A stretch of DNA of 39,113 bases, from the NCBI GenBank assembly GCA_014377495.1, contig JACMPN010000577.1, positions 1 to 39,113 on the forward strand. The letters run 5' to 3'. Shown one piece after another: positions 4,604 to 39,113 of the stretch. The translations under genes were made by a program, and so were the position numbers. The DNA comes from Candidatus Sericytochromatia bacterium. Its GTDB lineage: Bacteria > Cyanobacteriota > Sericytochromatia > JACMPN01. The first letter of the stretch is position 1, and every line of letters begins with the position of its first letter. Below the pieces are notes generated by a model. It saw only the letters and a list, made by a program, of their open reading frames with translations. It was not told the DNA's origin and made no database searches.

Positions 4604-4842
4604 ACAGGTTCGACGAGGCCGGCCGTGAGCCGCTGAAAGGCGACGAGCACGGTTTGCACAGCTTCCCAGTCATCGCACGATGAGGCCAATGCGGCTACGG
4701 CCTCGGACTTGACGGCCTCGCCGCGCGAGGCTGCGGCGGCGGCGGTCTGCAGGGTCTCTAAGAACAGGGACTTGTCACCATCGGACAACCGACCGAGTTC
4801 TTCGTCCAGCTGCGCCATCAGCGCCATATCGATCTCGGCCAT
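4600..4842 (-). CDS. Small acidic hypothetical protein (80 aa)
   Basis: ATG at 4842 is preceded by AGGAGGAAAG. Helical, Asp/Glu-rich sequence MAEIDMALMAQLDEELGRLSDGDK... Divergent from the 5037 gene. Confidence 0.6.
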   Translation of the reverse strand: MAEIDMALMAQLDEELGRLSDGDKSLFLETLQTAAAAASRGEAVKSEAVAALASSCDDWEAVQTVLVAFQRLTAGLVEPV

Positions 4843-6899: not shown

Positions 6900-7187
6900 A
6901 TGAACAAAACGCAGGCCGCTGAACTCGATACCACCCTGAAAAAGCTCGATGGCAACGGTGACGGGCGTGCCCATGGCCTGCGGATGAACCCCAACAGCAT
7001 CCGGGACCAGACCCCGACCTTGCGCTCGCCACCCGGGAACGTCGACAGGACGACCGGCGGGCTCACGTCGTGGGGGCAGACTGCCCTGGTCACCGGGATG
7101 AACTCCGTCAAGGCATTGCAGGCCAGCGGCACGCCCGTCCAGTTGGCGATCGGCCTGCCGTTTGGCTTTACGAAGCCAAGCCCCTAG
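6900..7187 (+). CDS. Hypothetical 95-aa ORF in a lower-GC gap (weak call)
   Basis: No SD. The frame is open back to 6723 without a canonical start. A plus-strand hairpin plus T-tract follows at 7239-7281, which argues for some plus-strand transcription. Confidence 0.3.
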   Translation: MNKTQAAELDTTLKKLDGNGDGRAHGLRMNPNSIRDQTPTLRSPPGNVDRTTGGLTSWGQTALVTGMNSVKALQASGTPVQLAIGLPFGFTKPSP

Positions 7188-30020: not shown

Positions 30021-30074
30021 CGGAAAACGGCTAAGACCCCCTTGCCCAGTGGCAAGGGGGTCTTAGCTGTTTTC
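30021..30074. terminator. Bidirectional rho-independent terminator
   Basis: 17-bp perfect stem gctaagacccccttgcc / ggcaagggggtcttagc with loop cagt. It is flanked by ggaaaac on one side and gttttcc on the other, between convergent genes. Confidence 0.85.
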
Positions 30075-30079
30075 CAGAT

Positions 30080-34931: not shown

Positions 34932-35020
34932 AGGGCTGGTCGCTCATCCGCTGATCCGCCAACGGTTTCAGTTTCGTTCCGTTGGTTGGCGGTGCCATGG
35001 GGAAAGGGTACGATAGCCCC

Positions 35021-36073
35021 ATGAGACGGAAATTGGCACTAGGACTGATCATGATCTCCCTGCCGGGGCTGTTGAGCGGCTGCACCCTAGGCTATCTGCT
35101 GCGCCAAGGCGTCGTGCAGGTGGGCCTTTTGATGCGCAGCCAGCCCTTGGAAAAGGTCCTCCCGACTCTGCCCAAGGAACAACAGGAAAAACTGGCGATG
35201 ATGGCCGTCGGGCGCGATTGGGCCGTGGCCAATCTGCACATGAAGCCGATCGCCAGCTACAAGAGCTACATCGACGTGCCGGGCGACTCGGTCTCCAACG
35301 TCGTCCAGGGCGCCTCCTCGCTTGAACTGAAGCCTTACCTGTGGACGTTCCCGGTGGTCGGGGCGGTCCCGTACAAGGGCTTTTTCAACCTCAAAGAAGC
35401 CACCCAGGAAAAGACGCGGCTGGAGCGGTTGGGCTATGACACCCTGATGCGGCCCGTGTCGGCCTTCAGCATGCTCGGCTGGCTGCCGGATCCGCTGTAC
35501 TCGCCGATGCTGCGCTACGACACGGTGGGCCTCGTCAGCACCGTCATCCACGAGATGACCCACGCCACCCTGTATTGGCCGGGACAGGCGGACTTCAACG
35601 AGAGTCTGGCCACCTACATCGGCTCGCAGGGGGCCGCTCAGTTTTTCGCTGCCCAGGGGGGCGCCGACAGCAAGATGGCCAAAGAGGCGGCTGCCCAGGC
35701 GCGTGATCACCTGCTGGTGGCGGCGGCCTTCGACACGTTGGCGACCGAGCTGGACGCGATCTTTCATCTGCCGGTGTCGGATGCCGAAAAGATCGCCCGC
35801 AAGGTGGAGTGCTACATCCGGGCCCAGATACGCTTTCAGCGGATGCCGTTTGAGTCCAACTACCACCGCTGGTTGGGCGATCAGGCGATGAACAACGCGA
35901 CGTTCATGATGAACCGCACGTATTACGCGGGGTTGCCCATGTTCGACGAGCTCGTCCGCAAGCATGGCGGCATCGCCACCACCCTGGAGTGGCTGGTCGC
36001 CCAGAAAGCGCCCAAAGATCCCTGGGCGTGGCTGCATGCCGAGCTCGGCCAGGCAGTCTCCTCGAAACCGTGA
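35021..36073 (+). CDS. Putative zinc aminopeptidase lipoprotein (Aminopep/DUF2265-like, HEMTH motif)
   Basis: Lipobox LLSGC. VSTVIHEMTHATLYWPGQADFNESLATYIG carries HExxH plus a downstream E. Confidence 0.8.
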   Translation: MRRKLALGLIMISLPGLLSGCTLGYLLRQGVVQVGLLMRSQPLEKVLPTLPKEQQEKLAMMAVGRDWAVANLHMKPIASYKSYIDVPGDSVSNVVQGASSLELKPYLWTFPVVGAVPYKGFFNLKEATQEKTRLERLGYDTLMRPVSAFSMLGWLPDPLYSPMLRYDTVGLVSTVIHEMTHATLYWPGQADFNESLATYIGSQGAAQFFAAQGGADSKMAKEAAAQARDHLLVAAAFDTLATELDAIFHLPVSDAEKIARKVECYIRAQIRFQRMPFESNYHRWLGDQAMNNATFMMNRTYYAGLPMFDELVRKHGGIATTLEWLVAQKAPKDPWAWLHAELGQAVSSKP

Positions 36074-36091
36074 ATCCGCCCAGACGACACT

Positions 36092-36132
36092 GACCCAAAA
36101 CGGCCCGTCGTGATGACGGGCCGTTTTGGGTC
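36092..36132. terminator. Bidirectional hairpin terminator
   Basis: Perfect 18-bp stem gacccaaaacggcccgtc / gacgggccgttttgggtc with loop gtgat, 19 nt after the aminopeptidase stop. Confidence 0.8.
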
Positions 36133-36148
36133 TATACGGTGAGATTTA

Positions 36149-36306
36149 GAGACGATCTCAATCAACGATCGGTCGCCTGGCACCGCATGGCTGCGCCAGG
36201 ACTGCGTTACAGCTTCTCACCGGACTGCCCCGTACCCCTCGTCACTGTGCCTTGCCTGGCAGTGCCCTACGGCGCCAGGCTCGGTCTCGTTGATTGGGAT
36301 CGTCTC
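36149..36306 (+). mobile_element. MITE-like 158-bp imperfect palindrome, copy A
   Basis: Starts GAGACGATCTCAATCAACGA and ends TCGTTGATTGGGATCGTCTC (20-bp TIR with 1 mismatch). TTA on both flanks (36146-36148 and 36307-36309). 146/158 identical to the reverse complement of copy B. Confidence 0.8.
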
Positions 36307-36432
36307 TTAGCGTTGGGTGATCGCCGTGACCATGCTGCCGAACGAGCTTGAAGTCGTCTGCTGGTCGACGTAGAGGTGTGCGGCGACAGCGATCACGATG
36401 CTGAGAATCAGCTGGATGTTGATGATGCGCAC
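36307..36432 (-). CDS. Unlisted 41-aa hydrophobic small protein
   Basis: AGGAGG (36440-36445), 7-nt spacer, GTG at 36432. Sequence MRIINIQLILSIVIAVAAHLYVDQQTTSSSFGSMVTAITQR, with one predicted TM helix. The stop TAA is the TTA flank of MITE copy A. Confidence 0.5.
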   Translation of the reverse strand: MRIINIQLILSIVIAVAAHLYVDQQTTSSSFGSMVTAITQR

Positions 36433-36506
36433 GGCCGTTCCTCCTGTGGTTTGACCCTTGTGACGGGTCGAGTAACCCAAAAGTTCCCGAAATTCATCCT
36501 AAAAGC

Positions 36507-37880
36507 TTAATTACGGAGTTCTTTCCCAATGACGGCGCCAGTGCCGATGGCCAGCTTTTCGGCAATTTCCGCCTGACTGCGGCCCAAAATCGTCAGTTCG
36601 CCGTACAAACGGGCGCCGAGGCCCTCGCCGAGGCGTGGCACGGCACCTTGGGCCAATGCTTCCCTGAATGCTTCGATCCCCGTCTTCAGAGCGCTGCGAT
36701 AGGCATTGGCCGTGGCCTGGCCCATGAAGCCGGTGGATTGGAAGGCCATCGCCTCGAAAGCGGCATAGGCCTGATGCTCAAAGGGCCGGACGGTCGTCGT
36801 GTGGGCCCGTTCAAAGCCACTGGCCGGCATATCCGCCACCGTCGTGCCCAGCCGCACGGCCTCGTCGAGAAAGGCTGTGGCCCGGGTCTGCACCATCTGC
36901 AAGGCATGGACCATCTCATGCGGGGCGCCGGCAGCCAGGGAGACGACAACCTCCCGGGACTGGCCGACGGCCTCGCCGGCAACGCCACCCTCGCGGACGC
37001 TGACACCATAGCGGGCGGCGACGTCGCGCAGGCGGCTTAAAAATACCTTTGCCTGCTCCGCCGTCACTTTGCCGCCCGCAGTCAAAGGTAGCTCTTTGAT
37101 CACCGCCTGCAGTTCTTTGGCGACCTGTGCGGCGGCCGGCCGGCCGACGCTGCGCATCCCGGCGATAGCCCCGGCAGCGCCGCGGGTGACGACGGTGGCG
37201 GCCTTGGTGGTCTGGGCGGCTTTGGCGGCCTGGACGATGGCCGCACCCTCGCGGCTGACCTGCGTGGCGCGGGCGACGCCCCCGACACCGAGGCCGTTGG
37301 CTGCCGCCAGGGCGACTTCGCCTGTCAGCAGGCTGATGGTTTTGGCTTTTTCGTAGCCCGAGGCACCGCCGCCCCACTCGGCGCCGAGCTGGGCCGAACG
37401 GTCCCGCACCTGCCGCAGTCCGGACATGTTGACGAAAAAGCCCATCGTCTGGGCGCCGAGATCGACGATGGTGGCGGCGAGCGGTCCCCGCCGGCCCTCG
37501 TCGACGGCCCGGTCATTGTCCTTGCGGACCCCTTCCCAGTGGCGGGCCGATTCGTTGAGCCAATGGCCGTCGCCGTGGGACTCGGCATACGCCTCGCGAC
37601 CCATGGCAACGGCCCTGTCGCTCCGTATGGCATCCGCCTGGCGGACGTGCTGGGGCGGGAATGTCTGGGCGTTGGCCGCAGCCGGGTGGGCCCGGGTGCG
37701 AGCGGTGTCCGTGTCGTTGTGCACCGCCGGGCCTGGCGTGGCGGCGGTCGTGATCGGCTTGGCGGCTGGTGGGACTGGTCCGGTGGCGCCCGCGTCCGGG
37801 GCCCCTGCGGTCTTGGCGATGCTGGGGGTGGGGTCGCAGCTGTCCGTTGGGCGCAGTCCTGACACGGTGAAAGCCCTCAT
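36507..37880 (-). CDS. Orphan protein with an HExxH zincin-like motif near the C-terminus (457 aa)
   Basis: YGVSVREGGVAGEAVGQSREVVVSLAAGAPHEMVHALQMVQ ... FEHQAYAAFE resembles HExxHxxQ zincin-like (DUF4157-type) domains. The N-terminal ~95 aa are Pro/Ala-rich. The start is uncertain (ATG 37880 or 37889), there is no SD, and the frame stays open into the MITE. Confidence 0.65.
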   Translation of the reverse strand: MRAFTVSGLRPTDSCDPTPSIAKTAGAPDAGATGPVPPAAKPITTAATPGPAVHNDTDTARTRAHPAAANAQTFPPQHVRQADAIRSDRAVAMGREAYAESHGDGHWLNESARHWEGVRKDNDRAVDEGRRGPLAATIVDLGAQTMGFFVNMSGLRQVRDRSAQLGAEWGGGASGYEKAKTISLLTGEVALAAANGLGVGGVARATQVSREGAAIVQAAKAAQTTKAATVVTRGAAGAIAGMRSVGRPAAAQVAKELQAVIKELPLTAGGKVTAEQAKVFLSRLRDVAARYGVSVREGGVAGEAVGQSREVVVSLAAGAPHEMVHALQMVQTRATAFLDEAVRLGTTVADMPASGFERAHTTTVRPFEHQAYAAFEAMAFQSTGFMGQATANAYRSALKTGIEAFREALAQGAVPRLGEGLGARLYGELTILGRSQAEIAEKLAIGTGAVIGKELRN

Positions 37881-37899
37881 CACGCACATGCGACACTTA

Positions 37900-38057
37900 G
37901 AGACTATCTCAATCAACGAGACCGAGCCTGGCGCCGTAGGGCGATGCCAGGCAAGGCACAGTGACGCAGCCTACGGGGTAGTCCGGTGAGAAGCTGTAAC
38001 GCAGTCCTGGCGCAGCTATGCGGTGCCAGGCGACCGATCGTTGATTGAGGTAGTCTC
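37900..38057 (-). mobile_element. MITE-like 158-bp imperfect palindrome, copy B (inverted relative to copy A)
   Basis: Starts GAGACTATCTCAATCAACGA and ends TCGTTGATTGAGGTAGTCTC. TTA flanks at 37897-37899 and 38058-38060. Confidence 0.8.
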
Positions 38058-38374
38058 TTAATTATGGCCTACCCGAACCGCCGACCTGTCTGCGCCAACA
38101 CAAGCTTAATGGACGACCTGATTGGTCATGACCGGCTCATAGCCAGGCGGTCATGGCGGTATCGGGCATGGGGTGGCAGGCGTAGCGGACACTGTCACCG
38201 GCTGGCCAGCGCTCACGAAATCCGGCATGGCGGACCAGCCGATAGTGTCGTCTTGCAGGGATCGACTGCCCCTGGGGTATTGCCGGCAGACGCAGTGGCG
38301 TGGGACCGGCAGATGCCGCATTTCCTCAGCCACTTCGATCTACCGGCGCCTGAGGCGGCAGGTCGTCGTGACGC

Positions 38375-39113
38375 CTAAAACTTGGGCTCCCCGTAAATGT
38401 AGTGCTTGTTTGGGTCGAGATAATGGTGTGTATAAGCGGCGGGATCCTCTACCCGACCGGCGAGATTCAGGGCATCGACCAGTTTCACCTTTTTGTCGAT
38501 GACGACCTCATTCCATCTGTGACCCGTCTTGGCGCTGTAAGGCATTTCGCCACTGCCGATGAGGTAGCCGCCTCGCAGTGAGGTGTGGGGCAATCGGGCC
38601 GCGTCGGCCATCAGGTGAAAGAGCATGGCCCGATGCCGACAGACAGGCGCTGTCAGATGGGGGACCAGACCGAGGAGGACCGGCCTGCCCTTGAGTGCCG
38701 CATCATCGACTTGGTGCGGGCCACGGGCAGTCATCGAGTCGGCGGCCAGTTGCGAAAGCTTCTGCGTTACCGTGGTATCCCGATAGAACCGGCGCGGTTT
38801 GGCGCCGATGTCAGTGGCTTGATTCAACAGGGCCCTCAGCAAGGGGTCGTTCGCTTGGTCAACAACGACGAACTCGACGCTGTGCTCGCCCGAGCCGCCC
38901 TGGAGTCGTCCATCGCGCGATACGGAATCCCCACTGGCCCCGGCAATGACGAATCCGTCCGGGATCCGTTCAGCAAAGCGGTCGGCTCCCTTGTAGCGTT
39001 GGGTCGCGCCCAATGCCCCGGGGGCGACGGTGTAATCGCCTTCCAGGCGGTGACCGTGCCGGGCGCCGAACGTCGCCGCATCGATCAGGAGCGTCTGCGC
39101 CTCGCCCGTGCCC
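38375..39113 (-). CDS. Transglutaminase-like cysteine-protease-fold protein, 5' end outside the window
   Basis: The frame stays open from 39013 to the window end. Cys motif TAPVCRHRAMLFHLMADAARLP and His motif KTGHRWNEVVID match the transglutaminase-like C...H...D core pattern. Confidence 0.65.
   Translation of the reverse strand, partial: GTGEAQTLLIDAATFGARHGHRLEGDYTVAPGALGATQRYKGADRFAERIPDGFVIAGASGDSVSRDGRLQGGSGEHSVEFVVVDQANDPLLRALLNQATDIGAKPRRFYRDTTVTQKLSQLAADSMTARGPHQVDDAALKGRPVLLGLVPHLTAPVCRHRAMLFHLMADAARLPHTSLRGGYLIGSGEMPYSAKTGHRWNEVVIDKKVKLVDALNLAGRVEDPAAYTHHYLDPNKHYIYGEPKF

Follow-up and report, generated by a model that had tools for sequence, protein, structure and literature searches.

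MITEs are non-autonomous transposons that carry no transposase gene of their own. The duplication flanking them differs among groups: it is TA for Correia elements, and TTA/TAA is typical of the Tourist MITEs of PIF/Harbinger. IS3, IS30, and other IS families also give duplications of 2–4 bp. The palindromic MITEs described in bacteria –Correia in Neisseria, ERIC in enterobacteria, and MITEAba12 in Acinetobacter (PMC6382973)– are non-coding elements of about 100–160 bp, with terminal inverted repeats (TIRs) of 20–26 bp and a short duplication at an AT-containing target. They are found between genes, beside the ends of these, and form long hairpins when transcribed. Among transposase families, IS5 and PIF/Harbinger elements produce 3-bp target duplications (PMC4122938), and target recognition in the IS1031 group of IS5 involves three nucleotides (PMC2516522). 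Finally, two non-autonomous copies can flank passenger genes with no transposase between them, as in the MITE and TIME composites: the integron-flanking MITEs of Acinetobacter and MITE-297 (PMC6382973), TIMEs (PMC4133298), and the qnrS2 cassette (PMC5444012).

Here we analyzed a window of 39,113 nt, which is a whole metagenomic contig from a Candidatus Sericytochromatia bacterium. It contains two inverted 158-bp repeats, A and B, that resemble Correia, ERIC, and MITEAba12 in all the features listed above. However, their sequence resembles none of these and is without a match in Rfam, the known copies are just two instead of tens to hundreds, the duplication is the 3-bp TTA instead of TA, and the host belongs to an uncultured high-GC lineage. 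A 3-bp duplication of an AT-rich trinucleotide is shared with the IS5 family (IS1031 and IS427 groups) and with PIF/Harbinger-Tourist (PMC4122938, PMC2516522), but the searches recovered neither a transposase nor an IS with these TIRs. The locus is similar to the MITE/TIME composites in having two copies around two genes, with the transposase missing between them; unlike those composites, it encloses one gene, of two, that is native to the site in relatives, its two copies have a duplication each, and the block was not seen elsewhere.

We consider it probable that A and B belong to one undescribed bacterial MITE family, as two copies that have diverged to 92% identity. Two separate insertions at TTA sites are the simplest account and the most likely one, because a direct TTA duplication flanks each copy separately and the relatives lack A at the equivalent site.

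The two copies and their flanks

The repeats and their ends are located as follows:

36149..36306, plus strand: putative MITE copy A, 158 bp, with TIRs at 36149-36168 and 36287-36306 (19/20 matching)
37900..38057, minus strand: putative MITE copy B, 158 bp, inverted with respect to A, with TIRs at 37900-37919 and 38038-38057 (19/20 matching)
36149-36168 plus, 36287-36306 minus, 37900-37919 plus, and 38038-38057 minus: sites of the TIR motif GAGACGATCTCAATCAACGA (motif scan, ≤3 mismatches)
36146..36148, no strand: TTA, putative left target-site duplication of A, read from the sequence
36307..36309, no strand: TTA, putative right target-site duplication of A, which, read on the minus strand, gives the small ORF its stop codon, TAA
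37897..37899, no strand: TTA, putative inner target-site duplication of B, read from the sequence
38058..38060, no strand: TTA, putative outer target-site duplication of B, read from the sequence

The original prediction, based on a hand alignment without gaps, described an inverted 158-bp pair identical at 146/158 positions. Comparing A at every position with B in reverse complement reproduced this figure, with exactly 12 differences, and blastn gave E = 6e-65 for the pair. A repeat search of the window extended the inverted arms to 36144-36313 and 37893-38062 (170 nt, 91% complementary). The TIRs of about 20 bp that had been proposed for each copy were recovered as well: the arms inside each copy match at 19/20 TIR positions, and GAGACGATCTCAATCAACGA occurred four times in the window (≤3 mismatches), at the four element ends only, and was absent from 100 shuffles of the sequence at that same threshold. 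The consensus of the TIRs reads GAGAC[G/T]A[T/C]C[T/C]CAATCAACGA.

Each copy had also been expected to fold as a whole into one long hairpin, and the folding results agreed. The 53-nt arms found by the repeat search are 74–75% complementary within the copies, and 43 of the 79 mirror pairs in the element are Watson-Crick, with 4 more G-T pairs. The DNA fold reached -40.4 kcal/mol for A (z -5.6) and -45.4 kcal/mol for B (z -6.8), and none of the 200 shuffles folded as well. One detail stood in part: TIR position 6 is indeed G/G in A and T/T in B, but this compensation does not hold as a sign of maintained arm complementarity. We discounted it as a trace of selection: in simulations with 12 random differences, one compensated pair arises with p = 0.074. 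The differences at positions 8 and 10/149 are uncompensated.

The element has a single open frame of about 52 codons, without start context. When translated, it had no homologue among 5.8 billion proteins, in a search meant to catch spurious ORFs called on other element copies. Comparison to Rfam at gathering and permissive thresholds gave nothing meaningful. The element has no coding capacity.

All four flanks are TTA on the plus strand, as predicted. Because TTA is so infrequent in the window (79 in 39,113 nt, or 0.002 per nt), four such flanks are far from chance. In the orientation of A, they read TTA..TTA for A and TAA..TAA for B, which fits a TWA target duplicated in either orientation and not flanks inherited within the element. 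Small size, no coding sequence, TIRs, and a 3-bp TTA duplication flanking both copies uphold the MITE-like nature that had been proposed. A place in the IS5 family is a tentative assignment from the 3-bp duplication.

No further copy and no parent IS were found in 185,579 species-representative genomes (GTDB), JGI metagenome contigs, IMG/VR, PLSDB, and phage records; for the source genome itself, the search covered the 39-kb contig only, and no third copy was found elsewhere in it. The only two copies known are thereby neighbours at one locus, which counts against the MITE reading. The TIR pattern GAGACNANCNCAATCAACGA gave 41 single hits in the 185,579 species genomes, from unrelated phyla and at or below chance expectation, and 6 chance hits in IMG/VR viral contigs. 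In metagenome contigs the TIR alone gave 73 single chance hits, and the tighter pattern of TIR plus GCC gave 0 hits. Within 4 kb, no partner TIR of at least 16/20 was found for any of the 120 TIR-pattern hits; only two had one at 15/20 (L013 and L118, chance level), and none showed extended similarity to the element. By blastn, the element had no match among PLSDB plasmids or phage records, and a literature search for the sample accessions found nothing.

The junction of the left flank with copy A is reproduced in L047, a Logan contig assembled independently from another run (99.9% identical); SRR9661224 represents the same strain, at 99.9% identity. L047 ends at element position 29. Predicted contig breaks lie near position 38 if 31-mers are shared by A and B alone, versus exactly 29 for a third copy with a TAA flank. 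Reading this end as a sign of a third copy was rejected, because at its other end L047 breaks off within a gene, a sign of low coverage.

Genes and orthologous loci around the pair

The genes and signals next to the copies are the following:

34982..36073, plus strand: PF10023 aminopeptidase, left flanking gene and anchor for the orthologous loci
36092..36132, no strand: perfect hairpin (18-bp arms, A4/T4 shoulders) that separates the aminopeptidase from the small ORF as a bidirectional terminator
36307..36432, minus strand: 41-codon hydrophobic small ORF, with GTG start and AGGAGG ribosome-binding site; homologues at L127 1307-1447 and L046 4632-4760
36463..36489, minus strand: GGGAAC-N16/17-CGTC motif, about 40–50 nt upstream of the small ORF, shared with its spacing by the window, L127, and L046
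36507..37865, minus strand: gene for a 452-aa orphan HExxH protein with an invariant HExxH..Q..E signature; its start codon is 35 nt from copy B
38061..38066, minus strand: CATAAT, a -10-like box that abuts the outer TTA of copy B

Between A and B there are only the HExxH gene (36507-37865, minus strand) and the 41-codon ORF (36307-36432, minus strand), as the original prediction had it. Its claim that the window contains no transposase also agrees with a non-exhaustive Pfam and NCBIfam scan, which detected none among the roughly 38 window ORFs it covered and no recombinase domain among these. The gene on the right flank runs off the contig end.

Copy A is placed between the bidirectional terminator (36092..36132) and the stop codon of the small ORF. 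When copy A and one TTA are removed from the window, the stop codon is followed by 13 nt and then by the terminator. Two relatives, L127 and L046, with aminopeptidases 78% and 70% identical to that of the window, have the aminopeptidase followed by the convergent small ORF, with a gap of 118 nt in L127 and 9 nt in L046. There is no element between them, and an ordinary terminator hairpin is found at the junction. Both relatives keep the small ORF along with the upstream GGGAAC-N16/17-CGTC motif, and its orientation in the window is convergent too. Thus, the proposed check for orthologous loci without the element was positive for copy A only; for copy B no empty site was found. L127 and L046 are different species, not strains, and synteny ends beyond the small ORF; strictly, the comparison represents absence of copy A in relatives rather than a recent insertion polymorphism.

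On this synteny, the 41-codon ORF is best described not as cargo but as native to the site, where it is conserved next to the aminopeptidase in convergent orientation. Being native to the site, it did not arrive with the HExxH gene. The two-gene cassette put forward originally was therefore not retained as a unit, since the small ORF is a conserved native neighbour and each copy has its own TTA duplication. The GGGAAC-N16/17-CGTC motif appears to be an ECF-sigma-type promoter of the small ORF, in view of the known ECF consensus.

On the side of copy B, HExxH homologues present boxes similar to CATAAT 25–42 nt upstream of the start codon. A sigma-70 promoter scan of 35900-38500 found none. We infer that, if the CATAAT box is functional, copy B would be transcribed as 5′ UTR.

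The HExxH protein had no match in Pfam, NCBIfam, or PADLOC, and its comparison to PDB sequences gave three non-significant matches only (E 0.069 or higher). Its family is rare (49 clusters among 1.84 billion representatives), and the protein of the window (P0001) forms a cluster on its own. AlphaFold modelled the full-length protein poorly (pLDDT 46), and the fold search with that model was meaningless. The model of the C-terminal domain was good (pLDDT 86.6), and the fold search with this domain found no significant structural neighbour; the best matches were weak, to Zn-peptidases (3c37 with E 0.27, thermolysin, M1 peptidase, and PprI) and to IrrE- and SprT-like viral proteins. In L042, L043/L044, and L128, the gene occupies a conserved neighbourhood (ECF sigma / DUF6249 / DUF4097 / HExxH gene / LeuRS) that is missing from the window, and the loci of the homologues contain no such repeats. 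Exact-protein look-ups of the HExxH protein and of the small ORF found no other contigs of the same strain on record.

Origin of the arrangement

We suggest that another part of the genome encodes a DDE transposase, judging by the 3-bp duplication one of the IS5 / PIF-Harbinger type, which would bind the 20-bp TIRs, excise the element, and paste it into a TTA/TAA target; filling in the staggered 3-nt cut would leave the flanking TTA copies. A and B most likely inserted separately at two nearby AT-containing intergenic sites of this 65% GC genome. Copy A would have hit precisely the stop codon (TAA) of the native small ORF, before the bidirectional terminator, and copy B would have entered immediately past the -10-like box, 35 nt ahead of the start codon of the HExxH gene. 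As a side effect, minus-strand transcription would turn both copies into RNA hairpins of very high stability, with A in the 3′ UTR and B in the 5′ UTR. The bracket arrangement of A and B is incidental. In principle, the inverted pair may support inversion or joint mobilization of the 1.6-kb segment, and there is no sign that either happened.

A MITE-bounded composite transposon or mobile insertion cassette would instead have moved the 1.9-kb block (36146-38060) via the outermost TIRs, bringing the HExxH gene. The genes are flanked by two inverted copies of one element, both outer flanks are TTA, and the HExxH gene lies outside its usual ECF sigma / DUF6249 / DUF4097 / LeuRS context. There is also precedent: MITE pairs in Acinetobacter flank integrons and a 76-kb mer region (PMC6382973), and TIMEs mobilize the DNA lying between them (PMC4133298). 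We nevertheless regard it as unlikely. The small ORF and its promoter-like motif are native beside the aminopeptidase in two relatives, so at least that end of the "cassette" was already in place; the inner flanks are TTA as well, giving an apparently complete duplication per copy; and a second copy of the A-to-B block or of the HExxH gene was not found, P0001 being a singleton, while the homologues' loci are free of such repeats. A duplication at the outer ends only, as expected of composite transposons, is non-discriminating here, as all four flanks and the target itself are TTA. An invertible segment, with the 158-bp repeats as crossover sites flipping the HExxH gene and the small ORF, would be in line with the long inverted repeats that bracket a short gene segment here and with the start of the HExxH gene 35 nt from one repeat. 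However, there is no recombinase among the scanned ORFs, the repeats are just 92% identical, and the small ORF is convergent as in the relatives. The direct TTA..TTA flanks are also kept; after one inversion, or any other odd number of them, the inner flanks would read TAA. Inversion is thus very unlikely.

A host-maintained palindromic repeat of the REP, ERIC, or Correia type, not currently mobile and with a role as terminator or in mRNA stability or processing, would be consistent with the very stable RNA hairpins of the copies (-73 to -92 kcal/mol). It would also agree with the location of A directly after a stop codon and of B between a -10-like box and the ribosome-binding site, and with searches that found neither other copies nor a transposase. 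Yet the element is missing at the relatives' junction, where an ordinary terminator hairpin serves, and a perfect bidirectional terminator already adjoins copy A. TIRs with exact 3-bp direct duplications are a transposition signature, and there is no Rfam match; we find a repeat of this type improbable. Since the window is a whole metagenomic contig and chimeric assembly can yield inverted repeats, an inverted duplication from misassembly was also considered. The 12 differences between the copies, the left junction into copy A reproduced in the independent assembly from another run, and the enclosed genes, intact and one of them syntenic with relatives, make such an artefact extremely unlikely. 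We give little credit to two further readings: a MITE composite formed in situ and able to mobilize the orphan zincin-like gene, or a long-range RNA duplex between B (5′ UTR) and A (3′ UTR), or RNase III substrates, controlling the HExxH gene and small ORF as a unit. Because both copies would be transcribed on one strand, their transcripts would be about 92% complementary over 158 nt.

Significance for the lineage

As two separately inserted MITE copies, A and B would be an ordinary kind of mobile DNA. Their family, with a 3-bp duplication specific to TTA, would be an undescribed one among MITEs. It comes from a high-GC lineage of bacteria that is poorly sampled, protein identity with the nearest relatives sampled being just 70–78%. 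Copy A would also be a clean example of an insertion that reuses the target triplet as the stop codon of a gene. The locus calls for caution against naming any gene pair between two MITE copies a "cassette", as synteny showed that one of the genes was already present. Should the full genome yield further copies and the parent IS, the element could be used as a strain marker and as a small test case for the effect of long hairpin UTR insertions on expression.

Anatomy and flanks of the two copies

At the structural level, a repeat search retrieved one long inverted pair in the window (arms 36144-36313 and 37893-38062, 170 nt, 91% complementary), with a 53-nt inverted repeat (74-75% complementary) inside each long arm. 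Compared with copy B (37900-38057) in reverse complement, copy A (36149-36306) differed at exactly 12 of 158 positions (blastn E = 6e-65), in line with the 146/158 of the hand alignment. The terminal inverted repeats (TIRs) of about 20 bp were also recovered: the arms matched at 19/20 positions inside each copy, and the 20-nt terminal motif (≤3 mismatches) occurred four times in the window, always at an element end, and never in 100 shuffles. Computed folds agreed with the proposed long hairpins, both as single-stranded DNA (-40.4 and -45.4 kcal/mol; z -5.6 and -6.8) and as RNA (-73 to -92 kcal/mol). The difference at TIR position 6 is present and compensated; those at position 8 and positions 10/149 are uncompensated. 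Since simulation with 12 random differences yields one or more compensated pairs with p = 0.074, we give the position-6 difference no weight as a sign that arm complementarity is maintained. Elsewhere in the window, an imperfect inverted repeat (6947-6981 / 7118-7152, 35 nt, 77% complementary, 136 nt apart) has a sequence unrelated to the MITE.

TTA (+ strand) was found at 4/4 flanks, as first noted, with 79 TTA in the 39,113 nt of the window. When both are read in the orientation of A, copy A stands between TTA...TTA and copy B between TAA...TAA. Duplication of a TWA target hit in either orientation gives exactly this pattern. Flanks inherited within the element would be identical in both copies and do not fit. 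The flanks of each copy are direct, not inverted, and it follows that the segment between A and B has had no net inversion since the insertions.

Genes around the copies and the orthologous site of copy A

The window is an entire metagenomic contig of ~65% GC, and its content looks chromosomal. The domain scan identified an RND efflux operon, LytR-CpsA-Psr, PLD-like proteins, an SLH-domain protein, an ABC ATPase and a methylpurine glycosylase. No transposase or recombinase domain was detected in the ~38 ORFs scanned; the first reading had likewise noted no transposase.

Features around copies A and B
34982-36073, + strand, PF10023 aminopeptidase, left of copy A
36092-36132, perfect hairpin with 18-bp arms and A4/T4 shoulders, after the aminopeptidase and left of copy A
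36307-36432, - strand, 41-codon hydrophobic small ORF with an AGGAGG site, between the copies
36507-37865, - strand, HExxH protein of 452 aa, between the copies
38375-39113, - strand, EDR1-like (EDR1/CTR1-type) peptidase-fold ORF, right of copy B, reaching the contig end

The pair does enclose the HExxH gene and the small ORF, whose TAA stop is formed by the TTA beside copy A. The HExxH gene has a GTG start and a GAGGG ribosome-binding site, consistent with the N-termini of its homologues. Upstream of the EDR1-like ORF, the frame stays open as far as the contig end; thus, the contig cuts the gene short, and the TTG listed as its start (39013) is not the true one. The hairpin at 36092-36132 is a probable bidirectional terminator between the aminopeptidase and the small ORF. 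A second near-perfect long hairpin lies at 30022-30075 (25-bp arms, A-run/T-run shoulders); both stand between convergent genes and resemble bidirectional intrinsic terminators. The list of a simple terminator scan lacked the first one.

Only two close relatives of the aminopeptidase are on record, P0008 (78% identity, contig L127) and P0009 (70%, contig L046), and the next best reaches ≤45%. Both contigs present the same local arrangement as the window: next to the aminopeptidase gene comes a small ORF convergent with it.

Small ORFs beside the aminopeptidase
L127, 1307-1447, - strand, MRSINYRLIIAIAIAIAAHLY...
L046, 4632-4760, - strand, VRAINYPLLISIGLAIALHHF...
Window, 36307-36432, - strand, VRIINIQLILSIVIAVAAHLY...

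All three share a GGAGG site and an upstream GGGAAC-N16/17-CGTC motif. The stop codons of the two genes are 118 nt apart in L127 and 9 nt apart in L046, and neither contig contains element-like sequence. For copy A, orthologous loci free of the element were therefore found, in relatives that are different species, not strains. Taking copy A out of the window and leaving one TTA gives the stop codon, 13 nt, and then the bidirectional terminator: the reconstructed empty site is a normal gene end. Judged by gene order, the small ORF is shown to be native to the site rather than to have arrived as cargo, and the two genes did not hold up as a cassette.

The small hydrophobic protein (41-46 aa, xRxINxxLIxxIxxAxAxHxx..., no family assignment) is always encoded convergently with the PF10023 aminopeptidase gene. 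The shared motif (window 36463-36489, - strand; L127 ~1470-1499; L046 ~4780-4812) lies ~40-50 nt upstream of its start and fits the usual ECF-sigma promoter pattern, so that a sigma factor of the envelope-stress type may control this small membrane peptide. An ECF sigma/anti-sigma pair adjoins the HExxH gene in three relatives.

Further copies, parent IS and assembly

Searches for further copies or a parent IS
genome_contigs (185,579 species-representative genomes, 596 Gbp), 17-specified-base TIR pattern: 41 single matches in unrelated phyla, ~70 expected
metagenome_contigs, TIR pattern: 73 single matches
IMG/VR, TIR pattern: 6 single matches
metagenome_contigs, tighter pattern: 0 matches
PLSDB and phage records, element by blastn: no match
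5.8 billion proteins, element's open frame: no match

All these searches were negative or at chance level. Similarity at the TIR-pattern matches never extended beyond ~25 nt, and no convincing partner TIR lay within 4 kb of any of them; the only 15/20 partners (two, in loci L013 and L118) do not exceed chance. BLASTN and pattern searches of species-representative genomes, metagenome contigs, IMG/VR, PLSDB and phage records, which covered the source genome as far as this 39-kb contig, retrieved no further copy; nor was there a full-length IS with the same TIRs among the pattern matches in genome_contigs, metagenome_contigs and IMG/VR. The open frame (RDDLNQRSVAWHR...GARLGLVD) spans nearly the full element (+ frame in A, 36149-36306; - frame in B, 37900-38057), being fully open in A and having a stop codon just ahead of the last TIR in B. 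Lacking a homologue, it is probably a by-product of high GC content.

An assembly artefact was ruled out because L047 (a Logan contig of run SRR9661224), 99.9% identical and from a separate sequencing run, has the same left flank and runs 29 nt into copy A. This contig ends there, at window 36177. The 31-mers common to A and B alone would predict a break at about position 38, and a hypothetical third copy with an identical arm and a TAA flank would place it exactly at 29. The other end of L047 is mid-gene, and low coverage accounts equally well for its end in A.

The HExxH gene, copy B and the origin of the pair

The HExxH protein has five homologues (51-59% identity). Three loci (L042, L043/L044, L128) share the neighbourhood ECF sigma, anti-sigma, DUF6249, DUF4097, HExxH gene, ..., LeuRS; the context differs in L045 and in the window. 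Therefore, the gene relocated during the history of the lineage. Nothing links this move to the MITEs, and no MITE or comparable inverted repeat was found at the homologues' loci.

Out of 1.84 billion representatives, an exhaustive profile search assigned no more than 49 clusters to this family. The conserved module (~210 aa) is C-terminal and the N-termini are varied, two with peptidoglycan-binding repeats. Residues H316, E317, H320, Q323 and E371 (H-E-x-x-H-x-x-Q and a downstream E) were invariant in 21 diverse domain sequences. The AlphaFold model of the domain is confident (pLDDT 86.6) and gave no significant structural match in PDB or BFVD, the best weak ones being Zn-peptidases. From the motif alone, we infer that the protein is probably a zincin-like metalloprotease, in a family not yet described.

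Without copy B and with one TTA, the region upstream of the HExxH start reads ...GGCCATAAT-TAA-GTGTCGC...GAGGG...GTG. This stretch of the window has a TATAAT-like box, as do three homologues (CATAAA, CATATG, GATAAT) 25-42 nt upstream of the start. This hints that, if the box is a -10 element, copy B landed immediately downstream and would be transcribed as 5' UTR. A consensus promoter scan found no full sigma-70 promoter upstream of the gene.

The TIRs, the direct duplication of 3 bp at a specific AT trinucleotide, the non-coding content, the absence at the orthologous site and the clean empty site are together the hallmarks of a non-autonomous element that moves by cut and paste; A and B are best read as MITE copies. 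Known makers of 3-bp duplications are IS5-family and PIF/Harbinger transposases (PMC4122938, PMC2516522); the collections searched yielded no parent IS, and this assignment is a lead. MITE pairs are able to mobilise the DNA between them (PMC6382973, PMC4133298, PMC5444012). Since one of the genes inside this pair is native and both copies carry a duplication of their own, the economical reading is that A and B inserted separately, in a GC-rich genome where intergenic DNA with TTA is scarce.
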